From positions 9,978 to 73,977 of the forward strand of contig CAVVWN010000007.1 in the NCBI GenBank assembly GCA_963752045.1: DNA of 64,000 nt. Direction: 5' to 3'. Positions within the stretch are counted from its first letter, which is position 1. Every line of letters starts with the position of its first letter. This DNA is from an uncultured Acidobacteriota bacterium (GTDB lineage Bacteria; Acidobacteriota; Vicinamibacteria; Vicinamibacterales; SCN-69-37). The notes beneath the pieces are model-generated. The model saw only the letters and a program-made list of their open reading frames with translations, did no database searches and was not told where the DNA came from. The position numbers and the translations under genes are program-made. This document shows, piece after piece, positions 12,024 to 58,159 of the stretch.

Positions 12024-12029
12024 TACAAT
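12024..12029 (+). promoter_or_regulatory. -10-like hexamer TACAAT, 5 nt before the ligD ATG (leaderless-type arrangement)
   Basis: Read directly: CCTGATTACAATCCCCCATGCCC. No Shine-Dalgarno sequence is visible. Confidence 0.3.
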
Positions 12030-12034
12030 CCCCC

Positions 12035-15060: not shown

Positions 15061-15067
15061 CGGCCCG

Positions 15068-15151
15068 GGTGGGGGAGATTTGCACAGGAGGGGGACGGGT
15101 CTCGCTTGCGCGAGCAAGACCCGTCCCCCTCCTGTGCAAATCTCCCCCACC
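15068..15151. terminator. Near-perfect 84-nt palindrome (about 40-bp stem) between the convergent gluQ and MBOAT genes; probable bidirectional terminator / palindromic element
   Basis: GGTGGGGGAGATTTGCACAGGAGGGGGACGGGTCTCGCTTGCGC|GAGCAAGACCCGTCCCCCTCCTGTGCAAATCTCCCCCACC, read directly. Confidence 0.7.
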
Positions 15152-18174: not shown

Positions 18175-18316
18175 GCGGCAAATCTTAGCCCAGCCGCGGC
18201 GGGATCGGCGGCGCACATTTCCCCTGTCCGCAAGGGCGGCGCGGTGCTACTTTCTAGAAGTCGTTGGCCGCCATCCGGAAGGCGGCCCGGGACAGGCGCA
18301 GGAGGTGTTCACGGTC

Positions 18317-21300: not shown

Positions 21301-23077
21301 GCGCCTGCGCCACCCTCGATTGGCCGCGGTCTTCCGCAGCATCGAGGCTCGCGACCCGCCCGGACCGCTCCTGCCCGTCGTGCAGGTCTCGACCTTCTCG
21401 TGCGGACCCGACAGCGTGACGACGCATCTGGTGGCCGACATCATGCGGCGGCGGCCCTTCCTGCTGCTGCAGTCGGACGCGATCCTCAAGGAGCTGGCGC
21501 ACCTCGAGAATCGCGTGAACACGTACGTGAAACAGCTCGAGCTTGGTCTGCATGGCGAGCTGCGGCTCGATGACGGCACGCCGTTCGAGGTCAAGCGCCT
21601 GCACGAGCTGCAGCATGGCGACCCGATCGACCGCGAGCGTGACGTCCTCTACTTCCCGACGCTTGGCGACAACCGGCCGGTGACCTCGGTTCTGCGAGGC
21701 GCGGGCTTCACGTGCATCGACAACTGGACCGAGGCGTACGACCTCGGCGCGGTCATTCGCGAGGGGCGGCGCTTTGCAGGCGATGCGGTGTGCGCGCCGC
21801 TGGCCGCCGTGTACGGCGACCTCGTCGGCGCCGTCGAGGATTTTGCCGAGCGCCATCGGCGCGGCGACCCGCTCGTCCGCAACAAGCGGCGCGTGCTGTA
21901 TTTCGACAACCAGGGCGACGGCCCGTGCCGTCAAGGCCAGTACGCCGAGGTGCACGCCATGCTCGCGCGTGGCGCGCTGGAAACCAGCGGACGTTCCGGG
22001 CCGGACGGCCGGGGCGACTTCGCGCTGCGCCTGCTCGTCGGCGCCGAGGAGCGCGACTTCGACATCGGGATCGAGGAGTGGACGATGTACCGCGCGTATC
22101 AGGCGGTGGTCGTCCACGCGGTGCTGCAGGATCTGCTCTTCCAGGGCGGGTCGCGCTGCCGCGACCGCGCGGATTACGGAGAGTTCATCGCCGACCATCG
22201 CCGGCTGAAGCGCGAGGTGCATGCGGCCCTCGAGTCGTTCCACGGACCCGGTCCGAACGCGCGGCGCCTGATCCGGGCCGCCGGAGAACGGACGGCCGCA
22301 GGCGCCGCCATCAAGTACTTCGCCTACCGTCTCGACGGGCGGGATCTCAGGCCGCTGTTGCGGCGGTTTGCGCGGCGATGGGTCCACGGCCGAACGCTTG
22401 CGCCCGGCCACCTTCGCATTCACGTGTCGGGCGAGGTCTACATGCGAATCGCCCAGGCCGAACAGGTCTTCGAGGCGCTCCTGTCGATCGTCGGGTTCAA
22501 GAGGTTCCACATGTCGCTCTCACCGATCTGGGCGTACCTCGAGTACCTGCCTGAGTACCGGGTCGAGGAGGCGAAGGAGGCGATCGGCGTGTGGGAAGCC
22601 AGACGCCGGCGCGCCGCCGCACCGGAGGACGTGCGGGCATCCGACGAGGGCATTCGCGCCGAACGACAGCGCATCAGGGACGCCGAGCGGCTCGGCGCCG
22701 TGCTCCGCACGCGCGTGGCGCGACCACTCTACCGGGCGGCCGGCCTGCCGCTGCCCGACCCGCCGCGCCACCTGCTGGACACGGCCAGGGACATCCTGCC
22801 GACGCTCCGCCCGGCCGGCGAGCTGGGGCTGTACGTGGGCGAGGCGCTGCTCGAACTGCGGGCCGGCGCGGACATCTTTCTCAGCATCGCGCCGACCGGT
22901 TGCATGGTGACGTCGATGGGCGAAGTCATGACACCCAAGCTCCAGCAGGCCGGCGCGGGACGGATCCAGAGCCTGTTCTCGGCCGACGGCGACGTCGACC
23001 GCGAACTGCTCGGCGTCTCGCTCCTGCGTGCCCTGGGCCCGGAACGGTTCGTCGAGGCGCAGAGCGCCGCCTCATAG
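18317..23077 (+). CDS. Giant acyl-CoA dehydratase activase-related protein: two BcrAD/BadFG-type ATPase modules fused to a large dehydratase-like / DUF2229-like region
   Basis: 1,586 aa from the ATG at 18317 (AGGAGG 12 nt upstream; the ORF-track start at 18167 overlaps ridA). Module 2 is canonical: VIVGLDVGSTMAKV, VDIGGEDTKIS, KCSAGTGSLMD, TCAVFLMENA. Module 1 keeps RCGAGSGINLD and RCGVFASSA but has VVDAGVEHL and VDLSASGYL instead of the ATP motifs. A Cys-rich junction follows: CRGAVCGDADARCNRTSLAC. Confidence 0.7.
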   Translation: MPRAAFAAADDDVLAGGTLVVDAGVEHLRLRELDASGRVVDDALVANHGDLKKIFSARGLDHRFGNGHGGRVVVTGKLADTVAGAIGRGRTILPAAALWLAARRVIARPENAGVETLALVDLSASGYLLVGINRSGLLAHDLLVVNPRCGAGSGINLDRVLQKLAVGRDEVDGLLAPYLGDAGRAKRASIGTRADRCGVFASSATVSDKNQGIPLDVALATTLKSEVLKTCRKLPPGFEMVCFSGRIFRWQFARDSAEDFVRDLGVARVVYDTENTHVLDALADLAPDAETPDAVPEPAAPPPLTTSARLYPSFRDLRSRHEADGLYTRMPSEPIPAPDPDVLAGRPVIVGLDVGSTMAKVAIADASDGRLLAMSAYSNAGDTVETVKCALRDLQARGIDTLTVAGIGITGSARYQVQQALMRIYPEAADRVSVLVENYAHARGSIDLARAHVADLAARGVDVNRDLAILVDIGGEDTKISTIALSRAELFANAMNLKCSAGTGSLMDTLASLFGIAGVAEACAEAYLAPRSRAINATCAVFLMENARKLQAEGVPRNEILASANWAIVENMARTLWHQIDLPARAVVLLHGQTMLSDPLPLAVTDRLQSFLGAPAWALVPPYPGHRACVGLVRTMMQAAPAGATAIRLADFVDATFEKRIIECRGAVCGDADARCNRTSLACLGKDGGRFTFTLGGCTAINELFGRRGQPRDAPPRDAYKEIWDAIAARQPKSDAPNRLVLARSFCVSEWAYLFARTFERFGIPVHVDEVREADLMSAQGLFNIDTCAPHMGAVGQYRRLAAEPHGVILVPQIVDLPTGGRSRGHTCTLNQGGVAVAQNLASMASPEARFHPFGVRLSDLDADAICDQLEPGFRGVFARYGLAPSAADLCAALAGAIDDHLALRREAADLAADLAEAALAEGRQIAVVVGREYVLNPGLYDSSVRRLLRDKRMTAIPSYVLDVDLDPEFSNIYWRNPHAIVTILNAIANKALHERLRHPRLAAVFRSIEARDPPGPLLPVVQVSTFSCGPDSVTTHLVADIMRRRPFLLLQSDAILKELAHLENRVNTYVKQLELGLHGELRLDDGTPFEVKRLHELQHGDPIDRERDVLYFPTLGDNRPVTSVLRGAGFTCIDNWTEAYDLGAVIREGRRFAGDAVCAPLAAVYGDLVGAVEDFAERHRRGDPLVRNKRRVLYFDNQGDGPCRQGQYAEVHAMLARGALETSGRSGPDGRGDFALRLLVGAEERDFDIGIEEWTMYRAYQAVVVHAVLQDLLFQGGSRCRDRADYGEFIADHRRLKREVHAALESFHGPGPNARRLIRAAGERTAAGAAIKYFAYRLDGRDLRPLLRRFARRWVHGRTLAPGHLRIHVSGEVYMRIAQAEQVFEALLSIVGFKRFHMSLSPIWAYLEYLPEYRVEEAKEAIGVWEARRRRAAAPEDVRASDEGIRAERQRIRDAERLGAVLRTRVARPLYRAAGLPLPDPPRHLLDTARDILPTLRPAGELGLYVGEALLELRAGADIFLSIAPTGCMVTSMGEVMTPKLQQAGAGRIQSLFSADGDVDRELLGVSLLRALGPERFVEAQSAAS

Positions 23078-24106: not shown

Positions 24107-26465
24107 CTACTGCACCTGGACCGTGACGCGGTGAATCCTGCCGGTAAACCGGTTGGCGCCCTCCCGGTATTCGGGGGTCACGGGCGTCTCGTTGTCCGTG
24201 CCGACGTCGATGCCCTCGTCGGCGGAGTAGACGAAGGGCATCGTCCTCGGCACGCGGCCCTCGACCGCCGGCTGGCCGTCGACGCTCAGGCGGCTCATGC
24301 CGCCCGAGCCCGGATTGCCGCCGTCGTACGCAAACTCGTAGAGGATCGTGTGACGTCCCGGTGCGAGCGCTGCCGATGAGACGACCGTACGCTCGAGGCC
24401 GCCGAAGTTGTAGACGTGATGGACGCGTCCCGCCTTCATGTAGAGGCTCCAGCCACCGAACCGTCCGGCCTGCGCGATGATGACGCCGTCGGCGCCGCCC
24501 GAGGGCACCTCCACCTCGGCCGTGATCGTGTGCGACTTGCCCTTGATGTTGATGAACGCATTTTCCGCAATGCCGGTCATGCCCTCGTAGAGCGTGAGCG
24601 AGGTGCGCGGGCCCATCAGGTCCGGCCGGCCGGCCAGCGCCGCATCGAAACGCTCCACGCGGCGGTCGTCGAGCGGATACACCTTGTTGCGAATCGCTTC
24701 CGTGTCGAAGACGGCCTGAAGCTCGCGGAGCTTCTCCGGGTTCTCGGCCGCCAGATCCCGGGCCTGGCTGAAGTCCTCCACGACGTTATAGAGCTCCCAG
24801 CGGTCCTCGTCGAAGGACGGAAGCGGCGCCATGAGCCACGGAATGGAATGGCGCGTGGCCGCGACCCAGCCCTCGTGATAGATGGCGCGATTGCCGAACA
24901 TCTCGAAGTACTGCGTCGTGCGGCGCTCGGGCGCCGCCGCATCCGCGAACGTGTAGGCCATCGACACGCCGTCCATCGCCCGCTGCGTCGACGCCGTTCA
25001 CCATCGTCGGCTCGGGCAGGGTCGCCGCCTCGAGCACGGTCGGTGCGATGTCGATCACATGATGGAACTGCGAGCGCACTTCGCCGCGCGCCGTGATGCG
25101 GCTCGGCCAGTGCATCACCATGGCGTTGCGCGTGCCGCCGAAGTGCGAGGCGACCTGTTTGGTCCACTGAAACGGCGTATTGCCGGCATGGGCCCAGCCG
25201 ACCGCGAAGTGGGGGAACGTCTCCGGGCCGCCCCAGTCTTCGAGGTGGGGCAACTGCGACGCGATGTCGCTCACGATGCCGTTGAGCGCGAGGAGCTCGT
25301 TGTAGGTACCGTCGGGCCCGCCCTCCGCACTGGCGCCGTTGTCACCCGCGATGTAGATGACGAGCGTGTTCTCGAGCTCCCCCATGTCGCGGATGGCCCC
25401 GATCAGCCGCCCGATCTCGAAATCGGTGTGCTCGCCGAATCCGGCGAACGTCTCCATCTGCCGGGCGAAGAGCCGCTTCTGATCGTCGGTGAGCGAGTCC
25501 CAGGCCGGGATCTCGGCGGGTCGCTCGGTGAGCGCCGTCCCGGCCGGCACGACGCCGTCGGCAATCTGACGCGCCAGCGTTTCCTCGCGCAGACGGTCCC
25601 ACCCCTCGTCGAACCGGCCCCGGTACTTCTCGATCCACTCCTTCGGCACGTGATGCGGTGCGTGGGTCGCGCCCGTGGCGAAGTAGACGAAGAACGGCTT
25701 GTCGGGCGTCAGCGACTGCTGAAAGCGCACCCACGAGATCGCCTGGTTCGTCATGTCGGTCGTGAAGTGGTATTCGGGGTCGTGGGGCACCTCGACCCGC
25801 GTCACGCCGTCGTAGACCGCGGGAGCCCACTGGTTGGTCTCGCCGCCGATGAAGCCGTAGAACTTGTCGAATCCGGAACGCGTCGGCCAGCGATCGTACG
25901 GACCGGACACCGACGCCTCCCACGGCGCGGTCTCGTGGTACTTGCCGAAGGCCGCCGTGCTGTACCCGTTCTGGCGGAGGATCTCGGCGAGCGGCGTGAC
26001 GCTCGCTGGGCGCACGCCGGTGTTGCCTGGAAACGCCGTCGCCAGCTCCATGATGGCGCCGGCGTTGTTCACATGATGGTTGCGGCCCGTGAGCAGGGCC
26101 GTCCGCGTCGGCGAGCAGAGCGCCGTCGTGTGGAACCGGTTGAAGCGCAGGCCGTTGTCGGCGAGACTCTCGAGCGTCGGTGTGCTGATCGGACCGCCGA
26201 ACGTGCTGCTGTGCCCGAAGCCGAAGTCGTCGACGAGAACGATGACGACGTTCGGCGCGCCAGCCGGCGGGGTCACTTCGAACCGTGGTGGCGCCTGCGC
26301 GTTGCGCGCGTCACGCTCTGTAATCGGCGGGTACTCGGGCTCCTGGATTGGCAGCACCGAGCGGTCGAGACCGCCCGCCGGCGGCGTTTCCACAGTCGGC
26401 CCGCCGCACGACGACACCACGACCGCCGAGAGGGCGATCAGGACACAACTCCGGTACCACTTCAT
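24107..26465 (-). CDS. Arylsulfatase (formylglycine type), lipoprotein; one frame break as given near 24985-25000
   Basis: N-terminal part (ORF 24786..26483; start MKWYRSCVLIALSAVVVSSCGG with lipobox): VVIVLVDDFGFGH and the Cys-type sulfatase motif LCSPTRTALLTGRNHH. C-terminal part (ORF 24107..24976): MDGVSMAYTFADAAAPERRTTQYFEMFGNRAIYHEGW. The downstream frame can be read back to TQRAMDGVSM, so a 1-nt indel sits right after ...EPTMVNG. Confidence 0.82.
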
Positions 26466-26549
26466 GCTGGATCTCCTGAACAAGGCTCAAGAAGGCTACC
26501 ACGAAGATGCAGCCCCCCTGTCTGCTCCTGCCTGGCGACTTCTACTCGC

Positions 26550-30180: not shown

Positions 30181-32814
30181 TCAACGCCGGTCGAGCGTTT
30201 GCAGCCAGTTGGTGACGAAGTCGAGCGAGCGCGCACCCGGCTCTTCGCGCACGAACAAGAAGTGCTTCCCGTCCGGGCTCAGGCTGTAATGCGGGATCGA
30301 GAGGTTTGGGCCGAACCGGTACTGCTGGTCGAAGAGCAGTCGCGGCGGCGATAGATTGGGGTCGGGGCCGAGCGCGACGTCGACGGCCATCAGGCGCTGG
30401 CCGTCGCGATAGTAGATGTGGCGGCCGTCCGGACTCCACAGCGGATGCAGGCCGCCGCCCGCCGACACCGAGTACCGTCGATCGGCCTGCGGATACGGCG
30501 AGAGATAGACCTGGGCCTCCCCGCCTTCATCAGACGTGTACACCATCCATCGCCCGTCCGGCGAAAACTGGCCCCCGCCTTCGTAGGCCGGCGTCTCGAA
30601 CAGCGACCGCGGGGCCTCGGTGTTGTCAAGGGGGACGACGTAGATGTCGCCGCTCGTCACGGGCGAGATTCTGATGAACGCCAGCGTACGGCCGTCGGGA
30701 GATACCGATGCCGGAAAGTCACTGGAACCCGTTGCGGCCAAGGCCTGCTCCCCGCCGGTGCCATCCGCCTTGATCATCGCGAGTGTCGTCGTGGATCTGA
30801 AGACGATGTGGTCCGGGCCTGCCCACTGGGCGTAGCCGGCACCGGAGGGTGCCAGTTTCGTCAAGGCGCCGCGCGCGAGGTCGAGCGTCCACAGGCCGTC
30901 ACCGCCGGAAAACACGAGGCGCCGCCCGTCGGGCGAGACGCGCGGGTTGGAGTACTCGCGCGAAGGTCCGATCACTGGCGTCTCCGTGCCGTCGCTGGTC
31001 ACCCAGACCAGCCGACCCAGTGACACGGCACTGCCGGCCGCGATCAGATCACCACTGGCCGACACGCTTGCGGCAAACCCGAGATTGGCCGCGAACGTCA
31101 CATCCTCTCGAACCCGGATCGGCGTCTCGGTGACCTGGCCGTCGCGGAGGCGCGCGGCGTAGAGCGCGCCGTCGCGGGCGAGCACCAGGCGGTCGGGAAA
31201 CGCCGCGATGGCCTGATACGCCTCCGGCAACGCCACGAACTGCCGCCCGGTCGAGAGGTCGACGCCGTGGAGCGCGTCGTGACCGTCCGTGGAGGTGCTG
31301 GTATAGAAGACGAAGGCCGAGTCGGTCGACGCGACCGGCAGCCTGTGCGCGATCTCACCGCGGGCCACGTCGAGCGTGGTCAGCGCCCGCGCATCCCCGC
31401 CGGCGGCCGGTATCGCCCAGAGACTGCCCTCGCGACCAAAGACGATCTGGTCATCTGCGCTCCAGGCCAGTCCTGCAACGAAGTCGGCGCGGGTGGCGAG
31501 CCGTTGAGAGGCGGTGCCGTCGACCGACAGCTTCATGAGGTCGCCCGTATTCGACACCTGGGCCACCTGGGCGCCGTCTGGCGACACGGCCAGCGCGCTG
31601 GTCGACGCACTGCCGGGGACCTCTCTCATCTCCCGATCATCGAGCCGCCGAGTGAAGATCTGGCGTACGCCGGCGCGGACGGCGAAGAAGGCCGCGACGG
31701 ATCCATCAGCCGAGAGCCGCGGCACGCCAAAGAACTCGATGTCCGAGGGCATGTTGAGCGACGCGGCGACCAGCCGCGCGTCGCCGTCGCCGCCTCGATC
31801 CCCGAGCGCCACCGCGAACGCCACGAGGAGCAGTCCGGCCACCGACCAGGAGAGCAGCGGCGATGCGAACCAGCGGCGCGATGACGACCCGGAGGAAGCC
31901 CCCGCGTCTTCCGGCGCCGCCTCGTCGTGTCCGGCAATGACCTCGTCGAGCAGAATGCGCGCTTCGCCGATGTCGCGCAGCCGCTGCCGCGGATCCTTCG
32001 TCAGGCATCGCGAGAGAAGCCGACGTATCGACCTGGGCGTCGCGGGCGGCAGTTGCGCAAGGTCCGGCTCGCGCTCGATCACCTTCGCGAGGACATCCGT
32101 GATGTCGTCGCCGGGGAACGCACGCGTGCCCGTGATCATCTCGTAGAGCACGACGCCGAACGCCCAGACGTCGGCCCGCCGGTCTACGGCCTTGCCGCGC
32201 GCCTGCTCGGGCGGCATGTAGGCGGCCGTGCCCATGATCATCCCGAGCTCGGTGGCGCGCGCCGTGAGGGTCGGGGAATTGGCGACGTGTTGGGCGGACT
32301 GCAGTTCAGTCCGCCCTGCGACTTCAGCCTTGCCCAATCCGAAGTCGAGCAGCTTGGCCTGCCCGTCGGGAGTGACCCGGATGTTGGCCGGCTTGAGGTC
32401 ACGATGGATGATGCCGCGCTCGTGCGCCGCCTCGAGCGCGTCGGCGATCTGCCGGCCGATGGCCCACGCCTCGGCAAACGGCAGCGCGGCGGGTGAAGCG
32501 CCGGCCGGGCGCAGCATCTCTTCGAGCGTCCGGCCCTCGACGAGCTCCATCACGATGACCGGGCCGGCGCCAGACTGCTCGAGGCCGTAGATGGACGCGA
32601 TGTGCGGGTGATTGAGCGACGCGAGCAGCTGCGCTTCGCGCTCGAATCGCGCCAGCCGGTCCGGATCCGACGCCACGATCTCCGGCAGGGACTTGATGGC
32701 GACGTCCCGCCGAAGCCGATCGTCGTGCGCCCGATAGACCTGCCCCATGCCCCCCTCGCCGATGAGAGCGGTCAGCTCGTAGGGGCCGATGCGTGTGCCG
32801 GGCGCGAGACTCAT
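30181..32814 (-). CDS. Ser/Thr protein kinase with TM segment and C-terminal TolB-like beta-propeller
   Basis: 877 aa: GPYELTALIGEGGMGQVYRAHD...VAIK, HRDLKPANI, DFGLGK, AYMPPEQ. Then a TM segment (LLSWSVAGLLLVAFAVAL) and repeated SPDG/propeller blades. Confidence 0.88.
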   Translation of the reverse strand: MSLAPGTRIGPYELTALIGEGGMGQVYRAHDDRLRRDVAIKSLPEIVASDPDRLARFEREAQLLASLNHPHIASIYGLEQSGAGPVIVMELVEGRTLEEMLRPAGASPAALPFAEAWAIGRQIADALEAAHERGIIHRDLKPANIRVTPDGQAKLLDFGLGKAEVAGRTELQSAQHVANSPTLTARATELGMIMGTAAYMPPEQARGKAVDRRADVWAFGVVLYEMITGTRAFPGDDITDVLAKVIEREPDLAQLPPATPRSIRRLLSRCLTKDPRQRLRDIGEARILLDEVIAGHDEAAPEDAGASSGSSSRRWFASPLLSWSVAGLLLVAFAVALGDRGGDGDARLVAASLNMPSDIEFFGVPRLSADGSVAAFFAVRAGVRQIFTRRLDDREMREVPGSASTSALAVSPDGAQVAQVSNTGDLMKLSVDGTASQRLATRADFVAGLAWSADDQIVFGREGSLWAIPAAGGDARALTTLDVARGEIAHRLPVASTDSAFVFYTSTSTDGHDALHGVDLSTGRQFVALPEAYQAIAAFPDRLVLARDGALYAARLRDGQVTETPIRVREDVTFAANLGFAASVSASGDLIAAGSAVSLGRLVWVTSDGTETPVIGPSREYSNPRVSPDGRRLVFSGGDGLWTLDLARGALTKLAPSGAGYAQWAGPDHIVFRSTTTLAMIKADGTGGEQALAATGSSDFPASVSPDGRTLAFIRISPVTSGDIYVVPLDNTEAPRSLFETPAYEGGGQFSPDGRWMVYTSDEGGEAQVYLSPYPQADRRYSVSAGGGLHPLWSPDGRHIYYRDGQRLMAVDVALGPDPNLSPPRLLFDQQYRFGPNLSIPHYSLSPDGKHFLFVREEPGARSLDFVTNWLQTLDRR

Positions 32815-32857
32815 GAAGTGGCGAAAGAATACACCAGCCGCTCAGCGGGCCAGCGTC

Positions 32858-32988
32858 AGGGGGACGGGTCTGTTTTCCACAGATTTGCGCAGTTGGGGGC
32901 CAGGTCTCCGTGGGTCTCCGTGGGGCATCTGACCCACGGAGACCTGGCCCCGAACGCGCAAATCTGTGGAAAACAGACCCGTCCCCCT
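32858..32988. repeat. 131-nt near-perfect palindrome (about 58-bp arms) in the divergent region between the two kinase genes
   Basis: AGGGGGACGGGTCTGTTTTCCACAGATTTGCGCAGTTGGGGGCCAGGTCTCCGTGGGTC-loop-GACCCACGGAGACCTGGCCCCGAACGCGCAAATCTGTGGAAAACAGACCCGTCCCCCT. One arm mismatch was seen. It shares the GGGGGACGGGTCT and AGATTTGC modules with the palindrome at 15068-15151. Confidence 0.8.
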
Positions 32989-33022
32989 CTTTCGCGGTAC
33001 CATGCCGGCCTCGGAGGCATGC

Positions 33023-35662
<2,640 letters not shown>

Positions 35663-45732: not shown

Positions 45733-46878
45733 CTACCGCCGACCCCACGCGGGCGGCACCGACACGAACGATGGATCGAGGTCGGTGACCGCACCGCACC
45801 CCAGCAGCTTCATCGTCCGCACGATGTCCGTCCGCAGGATCTCGAGCGCGCGCGCCACGCCGGCTTCCCCGCCCGCGCCGAGCCCGTAGGCGTACGCGCG
45901 GCCCGCGAGCACGGCCTTCGCGCCCATCGCAACAGCCTTGACGACGTCGCTGCCGCGGCGCACGCCGCCGTCGAGGAGCACGTCGACGCGTCCACCCACG
46001 GCCTCGACGACCTCCGGCAGGACGCGAAGCGTCGCAGCCACTCCGTCGAGTTGGCGGCCGCCATGATTCGACACGACCACCGCATCGGCGCCCGCGTCGA
46101 TCGCCTTCCGCGCATCGTCGGCGGTGTGCGCGCCCTTGGCGATGACCGGGCCCTGCCACGCGTCCCTGATCCACCGGAAGTCGGCCCACGACACCATCGA
46201 CTTCTCGAGCGCCGCCGTGACGTCCGCGTACGCCATCGGGCCTTCGGGCAACACGATGTTCGGAAACTGCATGAGACCGCCGTCCCGATACGTGTCCCAG
46301 AGCCAGCGCGGCCTGGTCACGACCTGCCCGAGGTGCGGCAGGCTCGCCATGCCACCCGTGATGAGCTCCTTGACGCCGTTGCGCCAGTCGCGCTCGCGCA
46401 GGCCCGCCACGGGCGTGTCGATCGTGACGATGAGCGCGCTGTAGCCGGCGGCCTTCGCGCGGGCAATCGCGCCCAGGGCCACGTCCTTCCCGCCGATGAG
46501 GTAGAGCTGGTACCAGGCCGAGCCTGACGTGGCCGACCGCACGTCCTCGAGCCGGCAACCGGACAGCGTCGACAGCGAGTAGATCGTCCCGGCCTTCCCC
46601 GCCGCCCGGGCCGCCTGTTCCTCGCCACGAGGCCAGAACAGCCGGCTGCTGCCGACCGGCGCGCAGATGACCGGCATCGACACGGACTCTCCGCACACCG
46701 TGGTCGACAGGTCGCAGCTGTAGGTGGCCACGGCCGATCGCGGCCGGAGCAGCACCTCGTCGAAGACGCTCTCGTTGTCGCGCATCGTGCGCTCGGTCTC
46801 GGCGCCGCCGTCGATGTAGTCGAAGACGGCTCGCGGCAGGCGGCGCTTCGCGATGAGCCGCAGATCTCCAATCGTCAT
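45733..46878 (-). CDS. FMN-dependent alpha-hydroxy acid oxidase/dehydrogenase (L-lactate dehydrogenase / glycolate oxidase family)
   Basis: 381 aa: LIAKRRLPRAVFDYIDGGAETERTMRDN, LIVTIDTPVAGLRERD, VVSNHGGRQLDG, GSDVVKAVAMGA. Confidence 0.87.
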   Translation of the reverse strand: MTIGDLRLIAKRRLPRAVFDYIDGGAETERTMRDNESVFDEVLLRPRSAVATYSCDLSTTVCGESVSMPVICAPVGSSRLFWPRGEEQAARAAGKAGTIYSLSTLSGCRLEDVRSATSGSAWYQLYLIGGKDVALGAIARAKAAGYSALIVTIDTPVAGLRERDWRNGVKELITGGMASLPHLGQVVTRPRWLWDTYRDGGLMQFPNIVLPEGPMAYADVTAALEKSMVSWADFRWIRDAWQGPVIAKGAHTADDARKAIDAGADAVVVSNHGGRQLDGVAATLRVLPEVVEAVGGRVDVLLDGGVRRGSDVVKAVAMGAKAVLAGRAYAYGLGAGGEAGVARALEILRTDIVRTMKLLGCGAVTDLDPSFVSVPPAWGRR

Positions 46879-46911
46879 GCGCGTGAGCCAGATGGTTCGA
46901 AGACATGCCCG

Positions 46912-49069: not shown

Positions 49070-50767
49070 TCAGTACCCAATGGCCAGCCCGTCCTTGCGC
49101 GGATCGGATGAGGCCGCCCATCCTCGCGGCAGCTTCATGATCATCTGCGCGCCGCCGAAGTCGGTGCGCGACTCGTCGGCCAGCTCGTGGCCGAGTGCCA
49201 CGAGCGCGGCGCGCACGGCGTCACCCATCGGTGATTCGATGGCCACGCGCAGGCCGGACAGGTGCCGGAAGCGCGGCGCGTCGTTGGCCTGCTGCAGGTC
49301 CATGCCGAAGAGCAGCACGTTCAGGAGCACCTGCACGTGCCCCTGCGGCTGCATCGCGCCGCCCATGACGCCGAACGACAGGAACGGCTCGTCGCCCAGC
49401 GCGTCGCGCAGCACGCCCGATTCGCGGGTCGTCTTCGTCACGAACGCGGGAATGATCGTGTGGAACGGCCGCTTGCGCGGCCCCACGGTGTTGGCCAGCC
49501 CCTCGGTCATCGTGAAGCCCGTGCCTCGGTCGTGCAGGAGCAGGCCGGTGCCCGGCACGACGATGCCGGAGCCGAAGTAGTCGTAGACGGAGTTGATGAG
49601 CGACACCATGTTGCCGTCGGCGTCGGCGGCCGTGAGGTAGATCGTGTCGCTCGCCGTCATGGCCTCGCCGGGCTCGACGCGCTCGGCGGCCCGCGCGGGA
49701 TCGATGAGCGCGCGCCGCCGGTTCACGAACGCGTCGTCGAGCAGTTGCTCCGGCGGGATCTTCATGTCGGCGGGCTCGCCGACGTAGTGCTGGATGTCCG
49801 CGTAGGCCAGCTTCTTCGCCTCGACGAGGTGGTGCAGGTAGGCGGCCGAGTTGTGCCCCATCGCCGTCAGGTCGTACGGCTCGACGAGTCGCAGCATCTC
49901 GAGCGCCGCGATCCCCTGGCTGTTCGGCGGCAGCTCCCACAGCCTGTAGCCCTTGAACGGCACGGACACCGGCTGCACCCACTCGACCTGATGGGCGCGG
50001 AAGTCCTCCGGCGTCAGGAACCCATCGAGCGCCTGGACGTGGGCGGCCACCTGGCGGCCGAGCTCGCCTCCATAGAGATGACCGGGACCGAGACGGCCGA
50101 CGTCGGTGAGCGTCCGGGCCAGATCGGGATTACTGAACCACTCCCCCGCCGCCGGCGCGCGCTCGCCGTCGATCAGGAACGTGGCGCGGGCCGCTTCGTC
50201 GCGCCGGAGCAGGTTCACCTGCGCAGCCCAGTTCCTGGCGATGATCGGCGTGACCGGAAAACCCTCCCGCGCGATGCGGATGGCCGGGGCGAGCGCCTCG
50301 CCGAGCGAGAGCGTGCCGAACTTCTCGAGGAGCGCGGCCCAGCCCGAGAGCGCGCCGGGCACCGTGACCGCCTCGGCCCCACGGGTGACGCGCGTCAGAC
50401 CGCGCGCCGCCAGGGCCTCGCGCGTCATGAGCGACCCGCTGCGCCCGCTGGCGTTGAGCCCGTGCAGCCGGCGATCCTCCGCGGACCACACCATCGCGAA
50501 GAGGTCCCCGCCCATGCCCGTCATGTGCGGCTCGACGACCGCCAGCACCGCCGCGGCCGTGACGGCGGCGTCGATGGCGTTCCCGCCACTCTGCAGCACC
50601 GCGAGCCCGGCGGCGCTCGCAAGCGGCTGGCTCGTCGCAATGACGCCGCGCGGCGCGTAAACCGTGGAGCGCCCGGCCAGCGTGGTCGGCCGCTGTGCGG
50701 CCGGATGTGCGACCACGGCGATGCCGGCGACCACAGCCAGGAACCAGCCTCGAGCTCTCACGCGCAT
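49070..50767 (-). CDS. ggt: Gamma-glutamyltransferase
   Basis: 565 aa from the ATG at 50767 (GGGAGGG RBS). Signal MRVRARGWFLAVVAGIAVVAHPAAQ, VIATSQPLASAAGLAVLQSGGNAIDAAVTAAAVLAVVEPHMTGMGGD, and the processing-site region SDTIYLTAADADGNMVSLINS...GSGIVVPGTG. Confidence 0.9.
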   Translation of the reverse strand: MRVRARGWFLAVVAGIAVVAHPAAQRPTTLAGRSTVYAPRGVIATSQPLASAAGLAVLQSGGNAIDAAVTAAAVLAVVEPHMTGMGGDLFAMVWSAEDRRLHGLNASGRSGSLMTREALAARGLTRVTRGAEAVTVPGALSGWAALLEKFGTLSLGEALAPAIRIAREGFPVTPIIARNWAAQVNLLRRDEAARATFLIDGERAPAAGEWFSNPDLARTLTDVGRLGPGHLYGGELGRQVAAHVQALDGFLTPEDFRAHQVEWVQPVSVPFKGYRLWELPPNSQGIAALEMLRLVEPYDLTAMGHNSAAYLHHLVEAKKLAYADIQHYVGEPADMKIPPEQLLDDAFVNRRRALIDPARAAERVEPGEAMTASDTIYLTAADADGNMVSLINSVYDYFGSGIVVPGTGLLLHDRGTGFTMTEGLANTVGPRKRPFHTIIPAFVTKTTRESGVLRDALGDEPFLSFGVMGGAMQPQGHVQVLLNVLLFGMDLQQANDAPRFRHLSGLRVAIESPMGDAVRAALVALGHELADESRTDFGGAQMIMKLPRGWAASSDPRKDGLAIGY

Positions 50768-50916
50768 GCTGCCCTCCCGAAGGTGAAGGTGACGAGCTTC
50801 AGATCCTACTCGCCGCTTTGATTCGACGCCATGCTTTCGATGCAGCGACGCCGCGATTCCGACAGAATAGTGAGAGGTTGTCCGATTCGCCATCACCCCG
50901 CCCTCGAGCCCCACGC

Positions 50917-53900
50917 ATGAGACGAGCCAGGCGATTCGTCGTCGCCGCGGCCGCACTGGCTCTGCTCATGGTGGCCGTGGTGCATCTGCCGTTCTCGACC
51001 GCGCTCGTCCTCGAGTGGATGACGGGGTGGCTGCGACGATCTGCCGGCATCGAGCTGTCGTCCTCCGCCCTGCGCTACAACCTGTTCACCCTCTCGGTGG
51101 AGCTCCGGGACGTCCGAGTCGCCTCGACGGCGACACCCGACGATCCCTTCGCCACCGCGAACCGGGTCGAGGCCGATCTCGGATGGCGGACGCTCATGGG
51201 CCGATTCGACCTGCGTCGCCTGGAGATCGATTCGCCGAGCTTCACGGTTCGGCGCGAGCAGGACGGGTCCGGCAACCTGCCCGACTCGGGATCGGAGCCG
51301 ACGAGCCCCACGGCCCCGGCATTCACCCTTCCCGACGTCTCGGTCGAGGACCTCGCTGTCGAGGTGACTCTTCCCGGCCTGGCTGTCAGCCTCCAGAATG
51401 CGTCTGCCACCGTCACGAGCCCGTCGACCGGCGTCATCGATCTCGACCTCCGGGCCACGGCGGGCGTGTCGCTGACGACCGGCGAGACGACCATCACGGC
51501 CGACGCGGCTGCCGCGCGGGCGCGGTACGACGGGCGCGCCATCTCAATCGACGAGTTCTCCGCCACGCGACCCGGCACGTCGGTGACCGCCACGGGATCG
51601 GTCGATATCGCCGGCGACGATCCGCAGATCACGATCGACTTCGCCGGTTCCACGGACCTCGCATCCTGGACCGCCGAGGCCGTCGAGGCCGACCGAATCA
51701 GCGGACGGGTCGAGGGACGCGGTCAGCTGACCGGCGCGCGCTCGAGTCCCGCAGTCATCGCGGAGTTGACCGGCGAGAATCTCGGCTGGTCGACCCTGGA
51801 AGCCGCGTCGGCGAGCGCGAACGGCACGTTCCGCGATGGCGTGCTCGAGGTCGACACGCTCACGGGCAGGCTGGCCGGCGGCTCGGTGGACGGCCGCGCG
51901 CGCATCGCATTCGCCGCCGACAGTGAGCCGAGCACGGCAATTGTCAGCTGGTCCGGTGTGGATCTCTCCGAGATCGCTGGTGGCACCGGGCTGAAGGCCG
52001 GCGTGCTGGCCTCCGGGCGTGCTGCGGTCGAATGGCAGTGGCCCGGCGGACCGGCCGCGACGGTGCGCGCGCGCCTTGATGCCGATGCCCGGCTGACGTC
52101 GGGTGATCAGGCCGTGAATCTCACCGCGAACGCCTCGGGTACCGGAGCCGACTGGCGCGTGGACGTCGAGTCAGCCGACGGCGACGAGACGGTACTCCGG
52201 GCCGGCGTCAACCTGACCCTCGACGACCGGGCCTGGACTGACTCGGCGATCTCCGGAGCGGCGAGCCTCGCAGCACCCGACATCCAGCGCGTCCTGCGAA
52301 TCCTCGACGCGGCCGGCATCCCGCTCGGCGCATTGGATATCTCGTCGGCGTCGGGTTCGGCGGCGCTCGCGGCGACGCTCGACGGCACGCTCGAGGCATT
52401 GACCGTCGCCGGCAACCTCGAGGGCCGGTCCGTCGTCCTCGCCGGATCGCCCCCGGCGCATGCGACAGCCACGTTTGCACTGGCCACCGGTGACGGCACG
52501 TCAACCGGACAATTCCAGCTCGACCTGCCCGACCTCGCGCCCTGGGCCGGCGCCGTGTTTCCCGAGCTCGGCCTGCGCGGCGGGTTGACGGCCACTGGCG
52601 GGTGGTCGGGCCCCCTCGACGACCCGACTGCCATCGTCGACCTCGCTGGTCGAGAGCTAGTGGCGAGCGGCATCGAGATCACCAGCCTCAGCGCCAACGG
52701 CAGCGCGAGCGTGGCGGCCGTCGACATCCTGCGCGCTGAACTGCATGACGCCGGCGGCGGTGTTCTCACGTTCGAGGGGCGCTACGACCTGGTCACCAGA
52801 CACCTCTCGATCACCGCCAGCGGCTCGGGCCTCCAGGCGACCTTTCCAGCCGCGCCAGGCACGCTCACCGACGCGATGACGTTGTCTGACGCGTCGATGT
52901 CGGCCACCGTCGAGGGTCTCGTCGAAGACCTGAGCGGCGAGGCCGCAGTGTCGGTTCGCTCGGTGCGCGCAGGCACACAGGACCTCGGCACGGTCGACAT
53001 CGACGCGACATTCGCCAACGGCACGGCGGCCCTGCGCCTGCGCGTGCCGGCTCTGGGCACGACCGCTCAGGCGAATGTCGACCTCACGGCGCCGTACACG
53101 TTCACCGGCAGTGGCACGCTGGATTCGACCGAGCTCGCCAGGGTGGCGCGCGCCGCGGGCCTGTCGCTCGAAGACCCTGCCGATCTCGCCGGTTCGGTGG
53201 ACGGGTCGATCGACTTCAGCGGGCAGCTCGGGGACGGCTCCGCCCTGTCGGCCACCGTGGCCCTGACGCCGGCCGACGTCGTGCTCTTCGGCGTGCCGAT
53301 ACAGGCGCAGGACGGCCTTCGGCTGATTGTCGCCGACGGCCGTATCGGCATCGACCGCGCTCGCGCTGCTCGTCGGCGACGTCTCGATCGACGCCACGGG
53401 CGAGGTCGGCACGGGTGCTGCTGCCGAGGGGTCGCTGCAACTCGACGTCAACGGCAGATTGGAATCGCTCGGTCCGTGGCTCGCCCGTTTGGATCGGCCA
53501 AGTCCGTGGGCGACCGACGGCCGGATCGCGGGCCGCCTGGAGGCCGTTCGAACGGCGTCGGGTCTCCACGTGACCGGCACGGTCGAGTCGGCAATTGCCA
53601 GCGTCCGCCACGGCGACGAGTCCATAGCCGACGATCTGGCGCTCGCGTTCGAGCTCGACGGCACGCGGGTACATCTCCGCCAACTCACCGGATCGCTGTT
53701 GTCGGGTCAAACGGACATCACGGGAAGCGCGCCTCTCGCCTGGCTCAACGAGTGGCTCCCGGCCAGCGTGCATCTGGCGTCTCCGGCCGTCGACGAACCG
53801 GGCGTCGTCGACGGTACGTTCACATTCGACGTCGCCGCGGCGCTCGCCCGTGCCGACGTACCGCTCCAGCAGGAGGTCGGCGGTATCGTCAGCGTCACGG

Positions 53901-55378
53901 CCAGGCTGAGCGCGACCGCGCTCACGCTCGAGGCAGCCACGGGCGACATCACCATCGACCGCGGCGAGATGACCACGCTCAACCGGACGTTCGCCCAGGC
54001 CCAACCGACGGTTCTGCGACTGGCTGGGCGCCAGCTGATCGTCGAGACGCTGGACTGGAGAGGCCAGAGTGGCGACATCGCCGGGGGCGGGGCGATCGGC
54101 CTGGCGGCCGACGTCGACACGAACCTGAGCTTCGTTTTCGACACGACGCTGCGGGTGCTCGATGCGTTCGTTCCCGGCCGCTCGACCGGCACGATCCGGG
54201 GCACGCTCGACGTCGGCGGACATCCGGGCGACTGGTCCGTCGCGACGGAGGTGACACTGGCCGACGCCAGCTGGCTGCTTCCCGAAGCCCGCCTGTTCTT
54301 CGCCGACTGGTCCGGCCAGATGCAGGTGACCGACGAGGGCGTCGTGGTGTCGGCCCTCGAGGGGCAGCTCAATGGCGGCACGATCACCGTGACCGGACGG
54401 CTGCCGTTCGGGACGGGACCGGAAGGTGACGGCCTGACGATTGTCGCGCGAGAAGTTCTGCTCGACATTCCGAAGGGGCTGCACAGCCAGGCCGTCGCCG
54501 ATCTCCGATGGATCCCACGCGACGGCGCGTCCGTGCTCGCCGGGTCGGTCACGCTCACCGCCAATCGGTATCGGGAGCCCGTCACGCGCATGCTCGAGAT
54601 GGTCGACACACTCTCGAGGTCGAGCCGCGGGAGCGCCAGCGAAGACAGCGCGCTGCCCGACTGGCTGGCCTCGACCACGCTCGACATCGCACTGAGCGTC
54701 ACCGATCCGGTGATTCTCGACAACAGCCTCGGCACCGTGGAGTTCGTGCCGGACCTGCGCCTCACCGGCACGGTTGGCAGCCCGGCTCTTGCCGGCGACA
54801 TCGGCGTGCTCGACGACGGCCGCATCAGCATCGGCGGTCGACGATACAGGCTGCGCGAGAGCCGGCTGCGCTTCGTGCCCGCCGAGGGACTGGCACCCAC
54901 ACTGGATGTGGTCGGCGAAACCCGTGTCGGCGACTACGACGTCGTGTTGCGCATCTCGGGCAGGCCGGATCAGATCGAAACCAGCTTCAGCTCCTCGCCG
55001 CCGCTCAGCGAGCGCGACCTGCGGTCGCTCCTCGTCACCGGACAGGTCGAAAGCGCAGGCACGTCGTCGGACGAATTTGCCCTCGAGGCCGCGTCGACCG
55101 ACATCCTGGGCCTGGCGGGCAAGTTCGTCGGGCTCGATTCGGTCCGGCTGGGCGCCGCCGACCTCGATATCGTGTCGAAGGACGCGCGGACCGCGCAGCA
55201 CCTGACCGTGTCGAAGTCGTTCGGCCGCATGTTCGAGCTCATCCTCTCGGAGAACCTCGAAGACGGGCCGCTGACATGGGTCGTGGTGTGGAAGCCGTTG
55301 ACCGGATACGAGTTCCGGTTCGCGTCAGTCGAGAACACCGAGACAACGGTCGAGTTCCGGCAGGAGCTGCTGTTTGGC
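50917..55378 (+). CDS. tamB: TamB-like (AsmA-family, DUF490 C-terminus) inner-membrane-anchored translocation/assembly protein; one frame break as given near 53340-53360; no stop codon at its natural end
   Basis: Start MRRARRFVVAAAALALLMVAVVHLPF (signal anchor) ...LEIDSPSFTVRREQDGSGNLPD. The first frame is good up to ...LRLIVADGRIGID, and the next frame continues ...ALALLVGDVSIDATGE. The DUF490-type end reads DYDVVLRISGRPDQIETSFSSSPPLSERDLRSLLVTGQ ... LTVSKSFGRMFELILSENL...TTVEFRQELLFG. Confidence 0.78.
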
Positions 55379-57684
55379 CCCGGCGCATCGAGAGCACGGT
55401 CGGCTCGCCCGGACACGCCCGCCACTCCGCAGCCGCAGATTGCCGGCATCGAGATCACGGGGAACCCCGGCTTCAGCGAAGCGGAACTGTCGAGCGCCCT
55501 TCGCCTCAAGCCGGGACAGCGCTTCGACATCCGGCGGTGGATCGACGACCGGGTCCGGCTCGAGCGGTTCTACCGGGACCGCGACTACCATCGCGTCCGC
55601 ATCGTGCCGACCCGCATCGAGGGAGATTCGGTCGGCAGCCCGCGCCGTTTGTCGCTCAGATACGACATCGATCGCGGACCGCGCACCGTTATCGAGGTCG
55701 CGGGCGACGACCTGCCCGCCGACGCGGTGAAAGAGATGCAAGAGGAATGGGGCGGCGTGCCGATCGCCGACATCCTCCGCGATGAATTCGAGCGCATCGC
55801 CCGCCTCGCGTTGGCCCGCCGCGGCTACTTTCGGGCCACCGTCGGCGCCGAGTTCACCACGTTGACCGACGAGCTCGAGCAGGCGGTGCTCACGGTCGAC
55901 CGCGGAGCGCGCACGCGGCACCAGCTGATCGCCTGGAGCGGCAACCGGGCGGTGACGGCCGCGGACCTCGACGCGATCGCCGCGGAACTGCCGGCCGAAC
56001 TGAGTCCGTTCGTCGACCCCCCGGCGCTCGTCAGGGACATCACGGCGCGGTACGCCGAAGCGGGCTTCTTCGATACCGAGGTCGTCGTGGGCGCGACCGC
56101 GTTCGATGGCGACACGGCCACACTGCCCATCGCGATTGTCGAAGGCCCGGTCTCGCGTGTGACGTCACTCGCACTCGAAGGCGTCGCCCCCGATCGACTC
56201 GATGGCGCACGGGCGGCGGTCGACCTGCCCGACGGTTCGACGTTCGGCTCGAGAACCGCCATCGAGGCACACCGGCGCCTCGAAGGTTTCTACGCCGACC
56301 TCGGCTATCGCGATGCCGCGGTCACCTACAGCGTCGACCGCTCGCCCGAGGGTTCGGTCGCCCTGGCGATGACGGTCGACGAAGGGTTGCCGCATGTCGT
56401 GAGCGACGTGCAGGTGTCGGGCGTCGAAAGCACGAGCCGCACGCTGGTCGATCGCGCCGTGACGCTCGCCCCGGGCCAGGAGGCTGGCCGGCAGCGCGCC
56501 CTCGACACACGCCGGAACCTGTACGACATCGGCACGTTCCGCCAGGTGGACGTCACGTTCGAGCCATCGGCGCTGGCCGCCGAACCGGGCGCGACGATTC
56601 CCGTCTGGGCCTCGGTGTCGGTCGAGGAACCGAGAAAGTACCAGCTCCGCTACGGCGTGCAGATATCGAGCAACTACACGGTGGCGACCGGCTTCGGCAA
56701 AACAGCGTTCGGCGCGACCGCCGAACTGCGCGACCGCAACTTCCTGGGACGGGGCATGCAGGCCAGCGTGGGCGCCCGCTACGACACCGACATCCAGGCG
56801 TTCAGCGTGCTGCTCTCGATGCCTCGGACCTTCGGGCGCGAGATTCGCACGAACATCTTCGCGCGCGAGCGCCGCGAGATTACCGACGCCGATGTATTGA
56901 CCTTCGAGGACCGCCGGCGGGACTTCACGTTCGAACAGCGCTGGCGGCCGCGGCAGACGTTCGAGATGGCCTGGAGCTACGCCTTCGGGTACCGGGCCTT
57001 CCGCCTGTCGGCGCCGGGCGATCTGGAAGACGAATCGGGCGGCTTCCTGGCCGGCCCGACCGCTCTCGGTCGTCCTCGACCATCGCGACGATCCGTTCGA
57101 CGCCACGAGCGGCTGGTTTCACTCGTCGAGCATCCAGGGCGGCCTCGAGTGGCTCGGCTCGGACCTCGACTACAGCCGGTACCTCGGACGGCAAACGCAC
57201 TACGTCTCGTTCGGACCGTTGACGTTTGCCGGTGGCGGCAGGTGGGGCACGCTCGACGCCTATCGAGGCGCGCCGCCTCTCTCGGTGCTCGACCTGTTCT
57301 TCACTGCCGGTGGCACGAACACCATCCGTGGCTATCCCGAAGGCTCGCTGTCGGCGGCCACGATCGAAGTCGTCAGGTTCGGCGACCTGCTGCTCATCCT
57401 TCCCGAGCCCCTGAAGGTGGGCGGCCCGGAGCTGCTCGTGCTCAACGGCGAGGTCCGCTATCCGGTTTTCCGACTGGATCCGGGGCGTGATCTTCGTGGA
57501 TGCCGGCAACACGTTCCTCAGCTGGAACGACATCTCGGCATCGAAGATGGCGGTTGGCGGCGGGCTGGGCATCCGCATCCGAACGCCGCTCGCGCCGCTC
57601 CGCTTCGATTTCGCGTATCCGCTCACGACGGGCTTCGGCTACCGCGGGCTGCGTATTCACTTTTCGATCGGGCAGATGTTCTAG
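55379..57684 (+). CDS. Omp85/BamA-like outer-membrane protein portion (20-aa linker, about 5 POTRA repeats, beta-barrel), read in frame from the TamB-like part; two further frame breaks as given (about 57055 and about 57470)
   Basis: Linker PGASRARSARPDTPATPQPQ, then POTRA-like units starting IAGIEITGNPGFSEAEL, EVAGDDLPADAV, LIAWSGNRAVTAADL, LALEGVAPDRLDGAR, VQVSGVESTSRTLVDR. Barrel: LRYGVQISSNY...RDRNFLGRGM...; own translation VVLDHRDDPFDATSGWFHSSSIQGGLEWLGSDLDYSRY; FFTAGGTNTIRGYPEGSL; C-terminus WIRGVIFVDAGNTF...GGGLGIRIRTPLAPLRFDFAYPL...RIHFSIGQMF (terminal Phe). Confidence 0.75.
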
Positions 57685-57715
57685 GCGCTGGGGTAAGATC
57701 CTCGGCGCGCCGCTC

Positions 57716-58159
57716 ATGATCGTCCAGATTGCCGTCGCGCTCGCTCTGACGACCGTTACCGTGCTGATCCACGCGCTCGGCACGATCGCGGCCATCCGGC
57801 GCCTGACGCGAGTGATCCAGACAAAGCAGCGGCTCGACTGGCTCGGGCTCGGCGCGCCGCTGGCCTTCCTCGTGAGCAGTCTCCTCACGCTGGCCGTGGT
57901 CGAGGTGCTCGTGTGGGCGGCCGTCTACCGGTGGGCCGGTCACCTGCCGGACTTCGAAACGGCGGTCTATTTCTCGTTCACGAGTTACACCACGGTCGGC
58001 TACGGCGACGTCGTGCTGCCGCTTGGCGGCCGGCTGCTCGGCCCAATCGAGGGCGCCGTCGGGGTCCTGATGTTCGGCTGGTCGACCAGCGTGCTCGTCG
58101 CAGCCATCAGCCGGATCGCCGCGTCGATGGGCAGCTCGGCTGCCGGCGACGGCCACTGA
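57716..58159 (+). CDS. Minimal two-TM potassium channel (KcsA-like pore, TVGYGD filter)
   Basis: 147 aa from the ATG at 57716: TM1 IAVALALTTVTVLIHALGTIAAI, pore helix/filter AVYFSFTSYTTVGYGDVV, TM2 GAVGVLMFGWSTSVLVAAI. Confidence 0.82.
   Translation: MIVQIAVALALTTVTVLIHALGTIAAIRRLTRVIQTKQRLDWLGLGAPLAFLVSSLLTLAVVEVLVWAAVYRWAGHLPDFETAVYFSFTSYTTVGYGDVVLPLGGRLLGPIEGAVGVLMFGWSTSVLVAAISRIAASMGSSAAGDGH

Follow-up and report, generated by a model that had tools for sequence, protein, structure and literature searches.

Does one reading frame of an uncultured Acidobacteriota soil bacterium encode both halves of a machine that other bacteria build from two proteins, or have two neighboring genes been merged by sequencing errors? 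The question arises from a 64,000-nucleotide stretch of contig CAVVWN010000007.1 (assembly GCA_963752045.1), the whole of which we call the window, where a sequence-only reading had proposed that the gene at 50917..57684 of the forward strand joins a TamB-like protein to an Omp85 barrel. We find that one open reading frame (ORF) unites a complete TamB-type AsmA-like protein with a complete five-POTRA, 16-strand Omp85 protein. On balance, we favor the view that the locus encodes a natural single-chain trans-envelope machine of the TAM type (translocation and assembly module; TamA–TamB).

In the window, the gene lies in four pieces split by three ±1 frame changes (Table 1). Joined together, the pieces give a repaired translation of 2,248 residues with zero internal stops, in agreement with the predicted length of about 2,250. 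By tblastn, the gene is collinear over 50983-57681, across all three frame breaks, with the uninterrupted proteins of Povalibacter (2,238 residues) and of a short-read relative, locus L007 (2,177 residues). Translation starts at ATG 50917 and yields the N terminus MRRARRFVVAAAALALLMVAVVHLPF, a signal-anchor with a Kyte–Doolittle 19-mer maximum of 2.47 at residue 7. Pfam searches recovered each of the expected domains. AsmA (PF05170) matches residues 1-145 with 41.8 bits (cut-off 29.8) and DUF748 scores 44.8 bits. The TamB/DUF490 family scores 85.3 bits in the window and 82-95 bits in orthologues. The POTRA match of 81.7 bits begins 20 residues past the end of the TamB part. The Omp85 family PF01103 scores 25 and 52 bits on the third and fourth pieces (57219..57719 and 57487..57684), and 130-145 bits in intact orthologues. 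The last TamB strand, TTVEFRQELLF (55343-55375), closes a block whose counterpart in Escherichia coli is the set of six strands that build a hybrid barrel with TamA. At the other end of the protein, the barrel carries the loop-6 motif TIRGY (57321-57335) and the C-terminal β-signal HFSIGQMF (57658-57681), followed directly by the stop codon (57682-57684).

The junction itself is uninterrupted. Frame 2 (ORF 53327..57490) reads ...TGYEFRFASVENTETTVEFRQELLFG / PGASRARSARPDTPATPQPQ / IAGIEITGNPGFSEAELSSAL... without a stop, the residues immediately across the join being ...TTVEFRQELLFG-PGASRARSARPDTPATPQPQ-IAGIEITGNPGF..., so that translation bears out the passage from the TamB end through a 20-residue linker into POTRA1. 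Neither of the other two forward frames has a start followed by a hydrophobic stretch between 55300 and 55620, and no hydrophobic stretch occurs in the linkers of the 184 family members in which both landmarks could be aligned. We therefore rejected an internal start or a separate signal peptide for the Omp85 half, which had likewise been read as lacking an export signal; the N-terminal Sec signal peptide expected of an Omp85 protein is absent from this half in the full-length relatives as well. Counted from the terminal aromatic residue to the first POTRA strand, the linker measures 15-29 residues in these 184 members, with a mode of 19 and 95% of the values within 15-23. Its sequence is variable and consists to 64% of Arg, Ala, Gly and Pro, with Arg alone making up 18%, and the residue ahead of it is Phe in 152 of the 184. 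In an alignment of eleven homologues, the junction is in frame in all eleven; an invariant F-G-x-G is followed by ~17-21 residues of variable spacer, after which POTRA1 begins. The TamB-type terminal strands and their Phe are thus internal, with the chain running on for ~770 more residues after the Phe. In the AlphaFold2 (AF2) model of the homologue P0036, the linker is disordered, with a predicted local distance difference test score (pLDDT) below 50. The fact that its length is conserved despite free drift of its sequence argues for a tether of defined reach.

Table 1. Parts of the TamB–Omp85 fusion gene and its frame breaks in window coordinates. POTRA boundaries are those of the five β-α-α-β-β units in the AF2 model of P0036, transferred by alignment.
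Feature	Position	Strand	Remarks
Piece 1, ORF 50695..54429	coding from ATG 50917 to ~53352	+	
Piece 2, ORF 53327..57490 (frame 2)	coding ~53372 to 57061	+	
Piece 3, ORF 57219..57719	coding 57063 to ~57465	+	
Piece 4, ORF 57487..57684	3' end of gene	+	
Signal-anchor, single hydrophobic helix, residues ~7-25	50935..50991	+	MRRARR motif before helix
AsmA/DUF748-like N-terminal region of the lipid-bridge half	50917..51351	+	Pfam AsmA PF05170 and DUF748
TamB/DUF490 core	54356..55210	+	Pfam PF04357, 85.3 bits (cut-off 22.4), residues 344-628 of ORF 53327..57490
TamB C-terminal amphipathic β-strand block	55139..55375	+	strands 357-435 of the P0036 AF2 model, transferred to the window
Junction: invariant Gly and 20-residue Pro/Ala/Arg linker PGASRARSARPDTPATPQPQ	55376..55438	+	
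Five POTRA domains	55439..56638	+	starts ~55439, 55682, 55919, 56156, 56390
16-strand Omp85 barrel	56639..57681	+	Pfam PF01103; strand count from AF2 model
Frame break 1 (frame 1 to frame 2)	53352..53372	+	tblastn match to Povalibacter stops at 53352 (its residue 812) and restarts at 53372 (its residue 819)
Frame break 2 (frame 2 to frame 0)	57061..57063	+	one extra G between ACC and CTC fits best; P0001 reads FLAGPAISVVLDRRD over the site
Frame break 3 (frame 0 to frame 1)	57463..57470	+	tblastn collinearity; P0001 reads LNGEVRYPVWRWFRGVVFLDAGN over the site

Because the window contains indel errors, the possibility of an artefact became the key question: an adjacent tamB and an Omp85 gene equipped with a start and signal peptide of its own could have been merged by such errors. 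In its favor, the window's gene has three indel breaks and many long-read relatives are frameshifted, four of them near the junction. Homologues at 38-79% identity nevertheless hold the TamB, POTRA and Omp85 domains within one protein, and the same in-frame junction is present in every relative examined, at 31-79% identity. A scan of species-representative genomes with a 400-residue junction profile returned 35 loci, 34 from Vicinamibacteria/Acidobacteriota assemblies and one from the cultured gammaproteobacterium Povalibacter uvarum DSM 26723. All 35 are consistent with the fusion, and 31 match unbroken across the junction. The remaining four, all from nanopore assemblies, show a single-base indel in or just after the linker, inside conserved sequence and with no start or signal peptide. 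Whereas 17 of the 21 long-read 'MFD' nanopore loci have one to four frame changes in the gene, none of the 14 short-read or isolate loci, that of the cultured type strain included, has a break. Uninterrupted ORFs of 2,177-2,489 residues are found at six loci (L007, L011, L012, L028, L033 and L034), L011 being that of P. uvarum DSM 26723 (WP_184332029.1).

A larger profile search, covering 1.84 billion protein cluster representatives, gave 579 matches at E<=1e-30. Of the best 150, about 140 align to the full profile from one side of the junction to the other, and many measure 2,100-2,400 residues. Among the relatives, 87 are full-length (2,007-2,409 residues); a hydrophobic helix stands at the N terminus of 71 of them, and no further hydrophobic window follows in any of the 87. 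We found no family member that ends cleanly at the Phe and no close relative that is split, and the 184 linkers leave no room for a signal peptide. Two kinds of apparent exception were rejected. P0041, a candidate 'Omp85-only' relative, begins exactly at POTRA1 and has no signal peptide, and the 'TamB-only' matches all end in out-of-frame garbage or at contig ends. P0041, P0042, P0045 and other proteins in ENA represent the fused gene split by gene callers in long-read assemblies, and such entries take on the look of Omp85 proteins that lack a signal peptide, or of oddly tailed TamB proteins.

The homologues, the species-representative genomes, the broken-gene origin of the apparently unfused proteins and the large profile search together establish that the fusion is real: a genuine, old and widespread architecture, whose in-frame junction, judged from the sequences compared, recurs far beyond chance. 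Neither a stop codon or signal peptide at the junction nor relatives with two genes, the observations named beforehand as telling against a fusion, were encountered. For the family, the unbroken in-frame genes of short-read and isolate assemblies refute a merger by sequencing error, to which we assign a negligible probability. The family spans well over a hundred related protein clusters and is large in Vicinamibacteria. Its members include WP_184332029.1 (UniProt A0A841HKY7; Povalibacter), MFN8059813.1 (Vicinamibacterales), MCL4811724.1 (Vicinamibacteraceae) and MPY90131.1 (Luteitalea sp.). The database names of intact members are inconsistent, ranging over 'YaeT', 'TamB domain-containing' and 'BamA/TamA family'; the Povalibacter protein is listed under the first two of these.

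Where along TamB does the fusion occur? E. coli TamB ends at residue 1,259, whereas the window reads ...FELILSENLEDGPLTWVVVWKPLTGYEFRFASVENTETTVEFRQELLF and then continues. The family profile aligns residues 1064-1207 of E. coli TamB to profile positions 4-148, and ungapped extrapolation of this alignment places the family's invariant Phe at about residue 1258-1259. In addition, five alternating-hydrophobic strands match the C terminus of E. coli TamB one to one. The profile match to TamB in the PDB is weak (E = 0.007-0.025), a larger profile aligned E. coli TamB only to residue 1197, and a phmmer search of the PDB with a single TamB C-terminal sequence gave no match. The correspondence of the final strands thus derives from the extrapolation and the strand pattern, and on this basis we place the fusion point at the natural C terminus of TamB, which is where the sequence-only reading had located it.

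For the fold of the fused protein, we relied on P0036, a homologue of 1,192 residues with 52% identity to the window product over 1,180 aligned residues. Its AF2 model (mean pLDDT 75.7) displays five β-α-α-β-β units and a 16-strand barrel. The best Foldseek matches in the PDB are to full-length E. coli BamA over ~825 columns, with TamA appearing only from rank 46. The Omp85 partner had been called BamA-like from its five POTRAs, and in architecture it is. By family score, however, the Omp85 half falls below the BamA cut-off, with 214.8 bits in Povalibacter and 157 bits in P0001 against the 297.15 bits of TIGR03303, which is nonetheless the nearest NCBI model. The half scores 94.8 and 62.2 bits against the TamA model NF047950 (cut-off 625 bits) and has five POTRAs rather than the three of TamA; it is also far below the TamL cut-off. 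The TamB half gives 51.2 bits against a cut-off of 825 for NF047952, a model built on proteobacterial TamB. One Vicinamibacterales assembly contains an unfused BamA-like protein of 977 residues with a signal peptide, which at 261.1 bits outscores the fused halves (157-215 bits) on the BamA model. The presence of this separate protein suggests that the fused barrel is an additional paralogue, probably of TamA type, the separate BamA-like protein being known from an assembly of the same order. 'BamA-like' therefore describes the architecture, whereas in function a TamA-type partner is more likely. The closest unfused Omp85 protein with a signal peptide that we found (P0048) is only ~26% identical, and its own near relatives point to Methylomirabilota.

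From established TamAB and BamA–TamB structures, we infer a sequence of steps by which such a chain could work. The N-terminal helix would stay in the inner membrane while Sec exports the remainder, and export behind an N-terminal anchor would explain why the Omp85 half needs no signal peptide of its own. The canonical β-barrel assembly machinery (BAM) would then insert the C-terminal barrel by means of its own β-signal, with the TamB groove, a putative hydrophobic conduit for phospholipid, spanning the periplasm. A hybrid barrel would arise as the last TamB strand pairs with β1 of its own chain's barrel, and the chain would exit by way of the invariant Gly-x-Gly turn into the periplasm, where the linker leads to POTRA1. 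As a covalent 1:1 unit, the product would ferry phospholipid across from inner to outer membrane and would possibly aid the assembly of some outer-membrane proteins. A strand antiparallel to β1 ends on the periplasmic side, where the linker to POTRA1 must start, which makes the fusion not only feasible, as had been argued, but topologically natural.

Pairing of this kind has precedents. Cryo-electron microscopy has shown the last TamB strand paired with β1 of TamA in a hybrid barrel (2026; PMC12800296, PMC13119328), and in Borrelia the last TamB strand has been modeled on β1 of a five-POTRA BamA (PMC13382580). In the fusion family, the top inter-domain pair by mutual information with average product correction joins residue 428 in the last TamB strand to residue 866 in β1 of the barrel, with a z of 7.8 that is driven by one two-clade pair. 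The antiparallel registry of 428-866 ranks 1 of 715, with its signal coming from that same two-clade pair. We put at somewhat under even the chance that the mature protein is intact in both membranes, with an α-helix in the inner membrane, a 16-strand barrel in the outer membrane and the TamB strands permanently tethered by the barrel seam. In the reading that we favor, the chain would stay uncleaved and would dock in cis.

The linker is the point at which a polyprotein reading departs from this scheme. If the fusion were a precursor, its Arg-rich disordered linker would be cut in the periplasm to release separate TamB and Omp85 proteins that form an ordinary two-subunit TAM, and the fusion would merely provide co-export, with no need for a second signal peptide, and 1:1 stoichiometry. 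The disorder, variability and Arg content of the linker agree with such processing, as do the free C terminus of canonical TamB and the ability of TamAB to adopt a non-hybrid state (PMC12800296). On the other hand, no conserved cleavage motif follows the invariant F-G-x-G, and the tight length distribution despite drift fits a fixed-reach tether better than a cleavage site. We also know of no such processing in TamB or Omp85 proteins, which counts against the proposal, and we consider it unlikely.

The reach of the linker bears on a different arrangement, in which the fusion remains intact and its Omp85 half provides a covalently attached anchor in the outer membrane, with the TamB terminal strands entering the barrel of a neighboring copy or of the canonical BamA. 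Docking in trans would yield chains or dimers instead of a closed cis unit. The N terminus of POTRA1 may sit far from the seam, and a linker of ~20 residues, which extends to at most ~65-70 Å, may fall short; moreover, Borrelia TamB docks on a canonical five-POTRA BamA (PMC13382580), and Vicinamibacterales have a separate BamA-like protein. In the Borrelia model, however, POTRA1 lies near POTRA5 in a closed ring (PMC13382580), a geometry in which POTRA1 would come close to the seam. The highest-scoring covariation between domains, though weak, connects the last TamB strand with β1 of the fused barrel, and a linker of conserved length suggests a defined geometry within the molecule. Docking in trans thus appears unlikely to us.

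Several observations weigh against the single-chain machine that we favor. Both halves fall under the NCBI equivalog cut-offs for BamA, TamA and TamB, so that function is extrapolated from distant relatives. The covariation between strand and barrel amounts to one split between two clades, Tyr-Asp versus Leu/Ile-Ser/Thr, that is maybe purely phylogenetic. Finally, the three breaks of the window copy fall within 6.8 kb, while the window's other long ORFs, totaling ~33 kb, are apparently intact, among them 18074-23077 (1,667 residues), 49070-50965 (GGT), 45733-46911 (FMN_dh) and 12023-14161 (LigD), which have full-length Pfam matches. By a crude estimate, the chance of all three breaks falling in the fusion gene is ~0.005.

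This concentration speaks for a reading of the window copy as a decaying pseudogene within an otherwise functional family. The breaks in relatives are restricted to nanopore assemblies, at the frequencies given above, and in a noisy comparison of flanks the neighboring genes of those assemblies are broken too, which makes sequencing error the likeliest cause. Indels aside, the window copy has no stops, retains its identity to P0036 along the aligned length and has all motifs intact. Each of the three breaks, which tblastn places where the sequence-only reading had suspected them, is a simple ±1 shift with homology continuing on both sides. We therefore regard decay of this copy as quite improbable and the three indels as probably long-read sequencing errors. 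Three breaks in one gene still exceed the clustering expected from uniform error, and local low coverage, a strain mixture or a decaying copy could account for it. Programmed frameshifting was rejected, as the positions of the breaks vary between loci and the short-read orthologues are unbroken.

In one nanopore relative (L008), two +1 breaks at 12255-12295 and 12613-12620 fall 4-12 codons from breaks 2 and 3 of the window, at different sites. Both L008 breaks are an extra G in the same context, TCGGTACTG, which looks like a motif-linked base-calling error, perhaps related to methylation at GTAC. Suspect ORF pairs elsewhere in the window were considered as frameshifts and rejected as separate intact genes. 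A sulfatase ORF at 24786-26486 (-) overlaps 24107-24997 (-) by ~200 nt, with the coding frame switching at ~24960-24980; this may be a further frameshift or two overlapping genes. The window also contains two divergent paralogous Ser/Thr protein kinase genes, 30181-32841 (-) and 32933-35662 (+), with C-terminal PD40/β-propeller repeats, and similar genes are found in several related loci.

The sole non-acidobacterial genome match is the Povalibacter locus L011 (NZ_JACHHZ010000003.1, 99978-121183). In a neighbor-joining tree of the junction region, its protein nests inside Vicinamibacterales sequences, suggesting that the family passed horizontally into this gammaproteobacterium. The GC content of the gene (63.6%) is similar to that of its flanks (62.2%), which suggests that the transfer is old. 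Synteny is lacking, with no neighbors common to the window and its relatives. At L007, a protein of 837 residues with HEAT repeats and a PQQ_2/BamB-like β-propeller is encoded at 3689-6202 (+), on the same strand and 148 nt upstream of the fusion gene; no gene of this type adjoins the fusion gene at any other locus or in the window. A patatin-like phospholipase gene of 753 residues lies convergent to the Povalibacter fusion gene and directly after it (12886-15147, -), and a 27%-identical homologue occupies the same position at the Vicinamibacteria locus L018 (12897-14954, -). The C-terminal ~300 residues of the 753-residue protein look β-barrel-like, perhaps in the manner of PlpD, and have no Pfam Omp85 match at E<=1e-3.

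How TamB and Omp85 proteins are coupled is an active question, with debate over the stable or transient nature of the hybrid barrel and over whether lipids, proteins or both are moved. A conserved covalent fusion offers independent evolutionary evidence on this point. It indicates that the two parts act as an obligate 1:1 unit, and that the end of the last TamB strand faces the periplasm, close enough to POTRA1 for a tether of ~20 residues to reach it. It also poses a puzzle of biogenesis, namely the export of a chain of ~240 kDa and the insertion of its barrel while the chain is anchored in the inner membrane. If the mature protein were indeed intact in both membranes, a covalent, self-contained trans-envelope lipid conduit would take the place of the two-subunit TAM throughout a class of abundant soil bacteria, BAM would be able to fold a barrel whose chain is still held in the inner membrane, and the TamB–Omp85 hybrid barrel would be a stable form in which the machine works, not a transient state. 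The cultured type strain P. uvarum DSM 26723, which carries the fusion, provides an experimental handle. In the full texts that we searched, which covered few subscription-journal papers, we found no description of a natural TamB–Omp85 fusion, in keeping with the sequence-only reading; this is absence of evidence only.

Among known systems, the TAM of E. coli is the natural point of comparison. It shares with the window fusion a signal-anchored AsmA-like/TamB protein of the inner membrane with a C-terminal DUF490 domain, a last amphipathic strand that ends in an aromatic residue and an Omp85 partner, the two parts being encoded side by side. The E. coli module, however, consists of two polypeptides in the order tamA-tamB, whereas the fusion is one polypeptide with TamB first, found as a single ORF at every one of the 35 loci and in ~140 of the best 150 cluster representatives. 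TamA comes with a signal peptide of its own and three POTRAs, in place of the five POTRAs and no second signal peptide of the fused half, and the C terminus of E. coli TamB is free, whereas in the fusion this strand is internal and is followed by G-x-G and the linker. VirB10 of type IV secretion systems is likewise a single polypeptide with an inner-membrane helix and a part of an outer-membrane channel, but its fold is unrelated, its outer-membrane part is α-helical and its function is different. In the chloroplast, TIC236 and TOC75 differ from the fusion in being two proteins of a eukaryotic organelle that serve protein import. They resemble it in that TIC236 is a TamB homologue of the inner envelope linked to an outer-membrane Omp85 protein (10.1101/2021.04.25.441383).

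Precedent for a partner or passenger at the N terminus of an Omp85 protein comes from the patatin–Omp85 protein PlpD and from 'BamA-BamB-like' WD40–Omp85 proteins (Heinz & Lithgow 2014, PMC4104836). In these, an ordinary signal peptide precedes domains that are periplasmic or secreted, and none has an inner-membrane anchor and a bridge that spans the periplasm. In Acidobacteria, a duplicated BamA beside TamB, proposed as the origin of TAM, provides the same phylum with a second BamA-like Omp85 dedicated to TamB; the two genes are separate there and run BamA-TamB, with seven POTRAs in some cases, and no fusion was reported (Heinz 2015, PMC4494059). The BAM–TAM system of Borrelia burgdorferi (TamB BB0794 and BamA BB0795) is similar to the fusion in combining TamB with a five-POTRA BamA-type barrel (PMC5582053, PMC11361582, PMC13382580), and its gene order is tamB then bamA (Heinz 2015, PMC4494059). 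The terminal strands of Borrelia TamB have been modeled to complete the BamA barrel, as we propose for the fusion (PMC13382580). The Borrelia proteins, however, are separate and their BamA is the sole canonical one, whereas the barrel of the fusion is covalently joined and probably represents an additional paralogue. Both parts, and the fact that they work as partners, were already known from TAM in Proteobacteria, BamA–TamB in spirochaetes, the acidobacterial pair and TIC236–TOC75; the locus described here adds not a new principle but a covalent fusion of the two.

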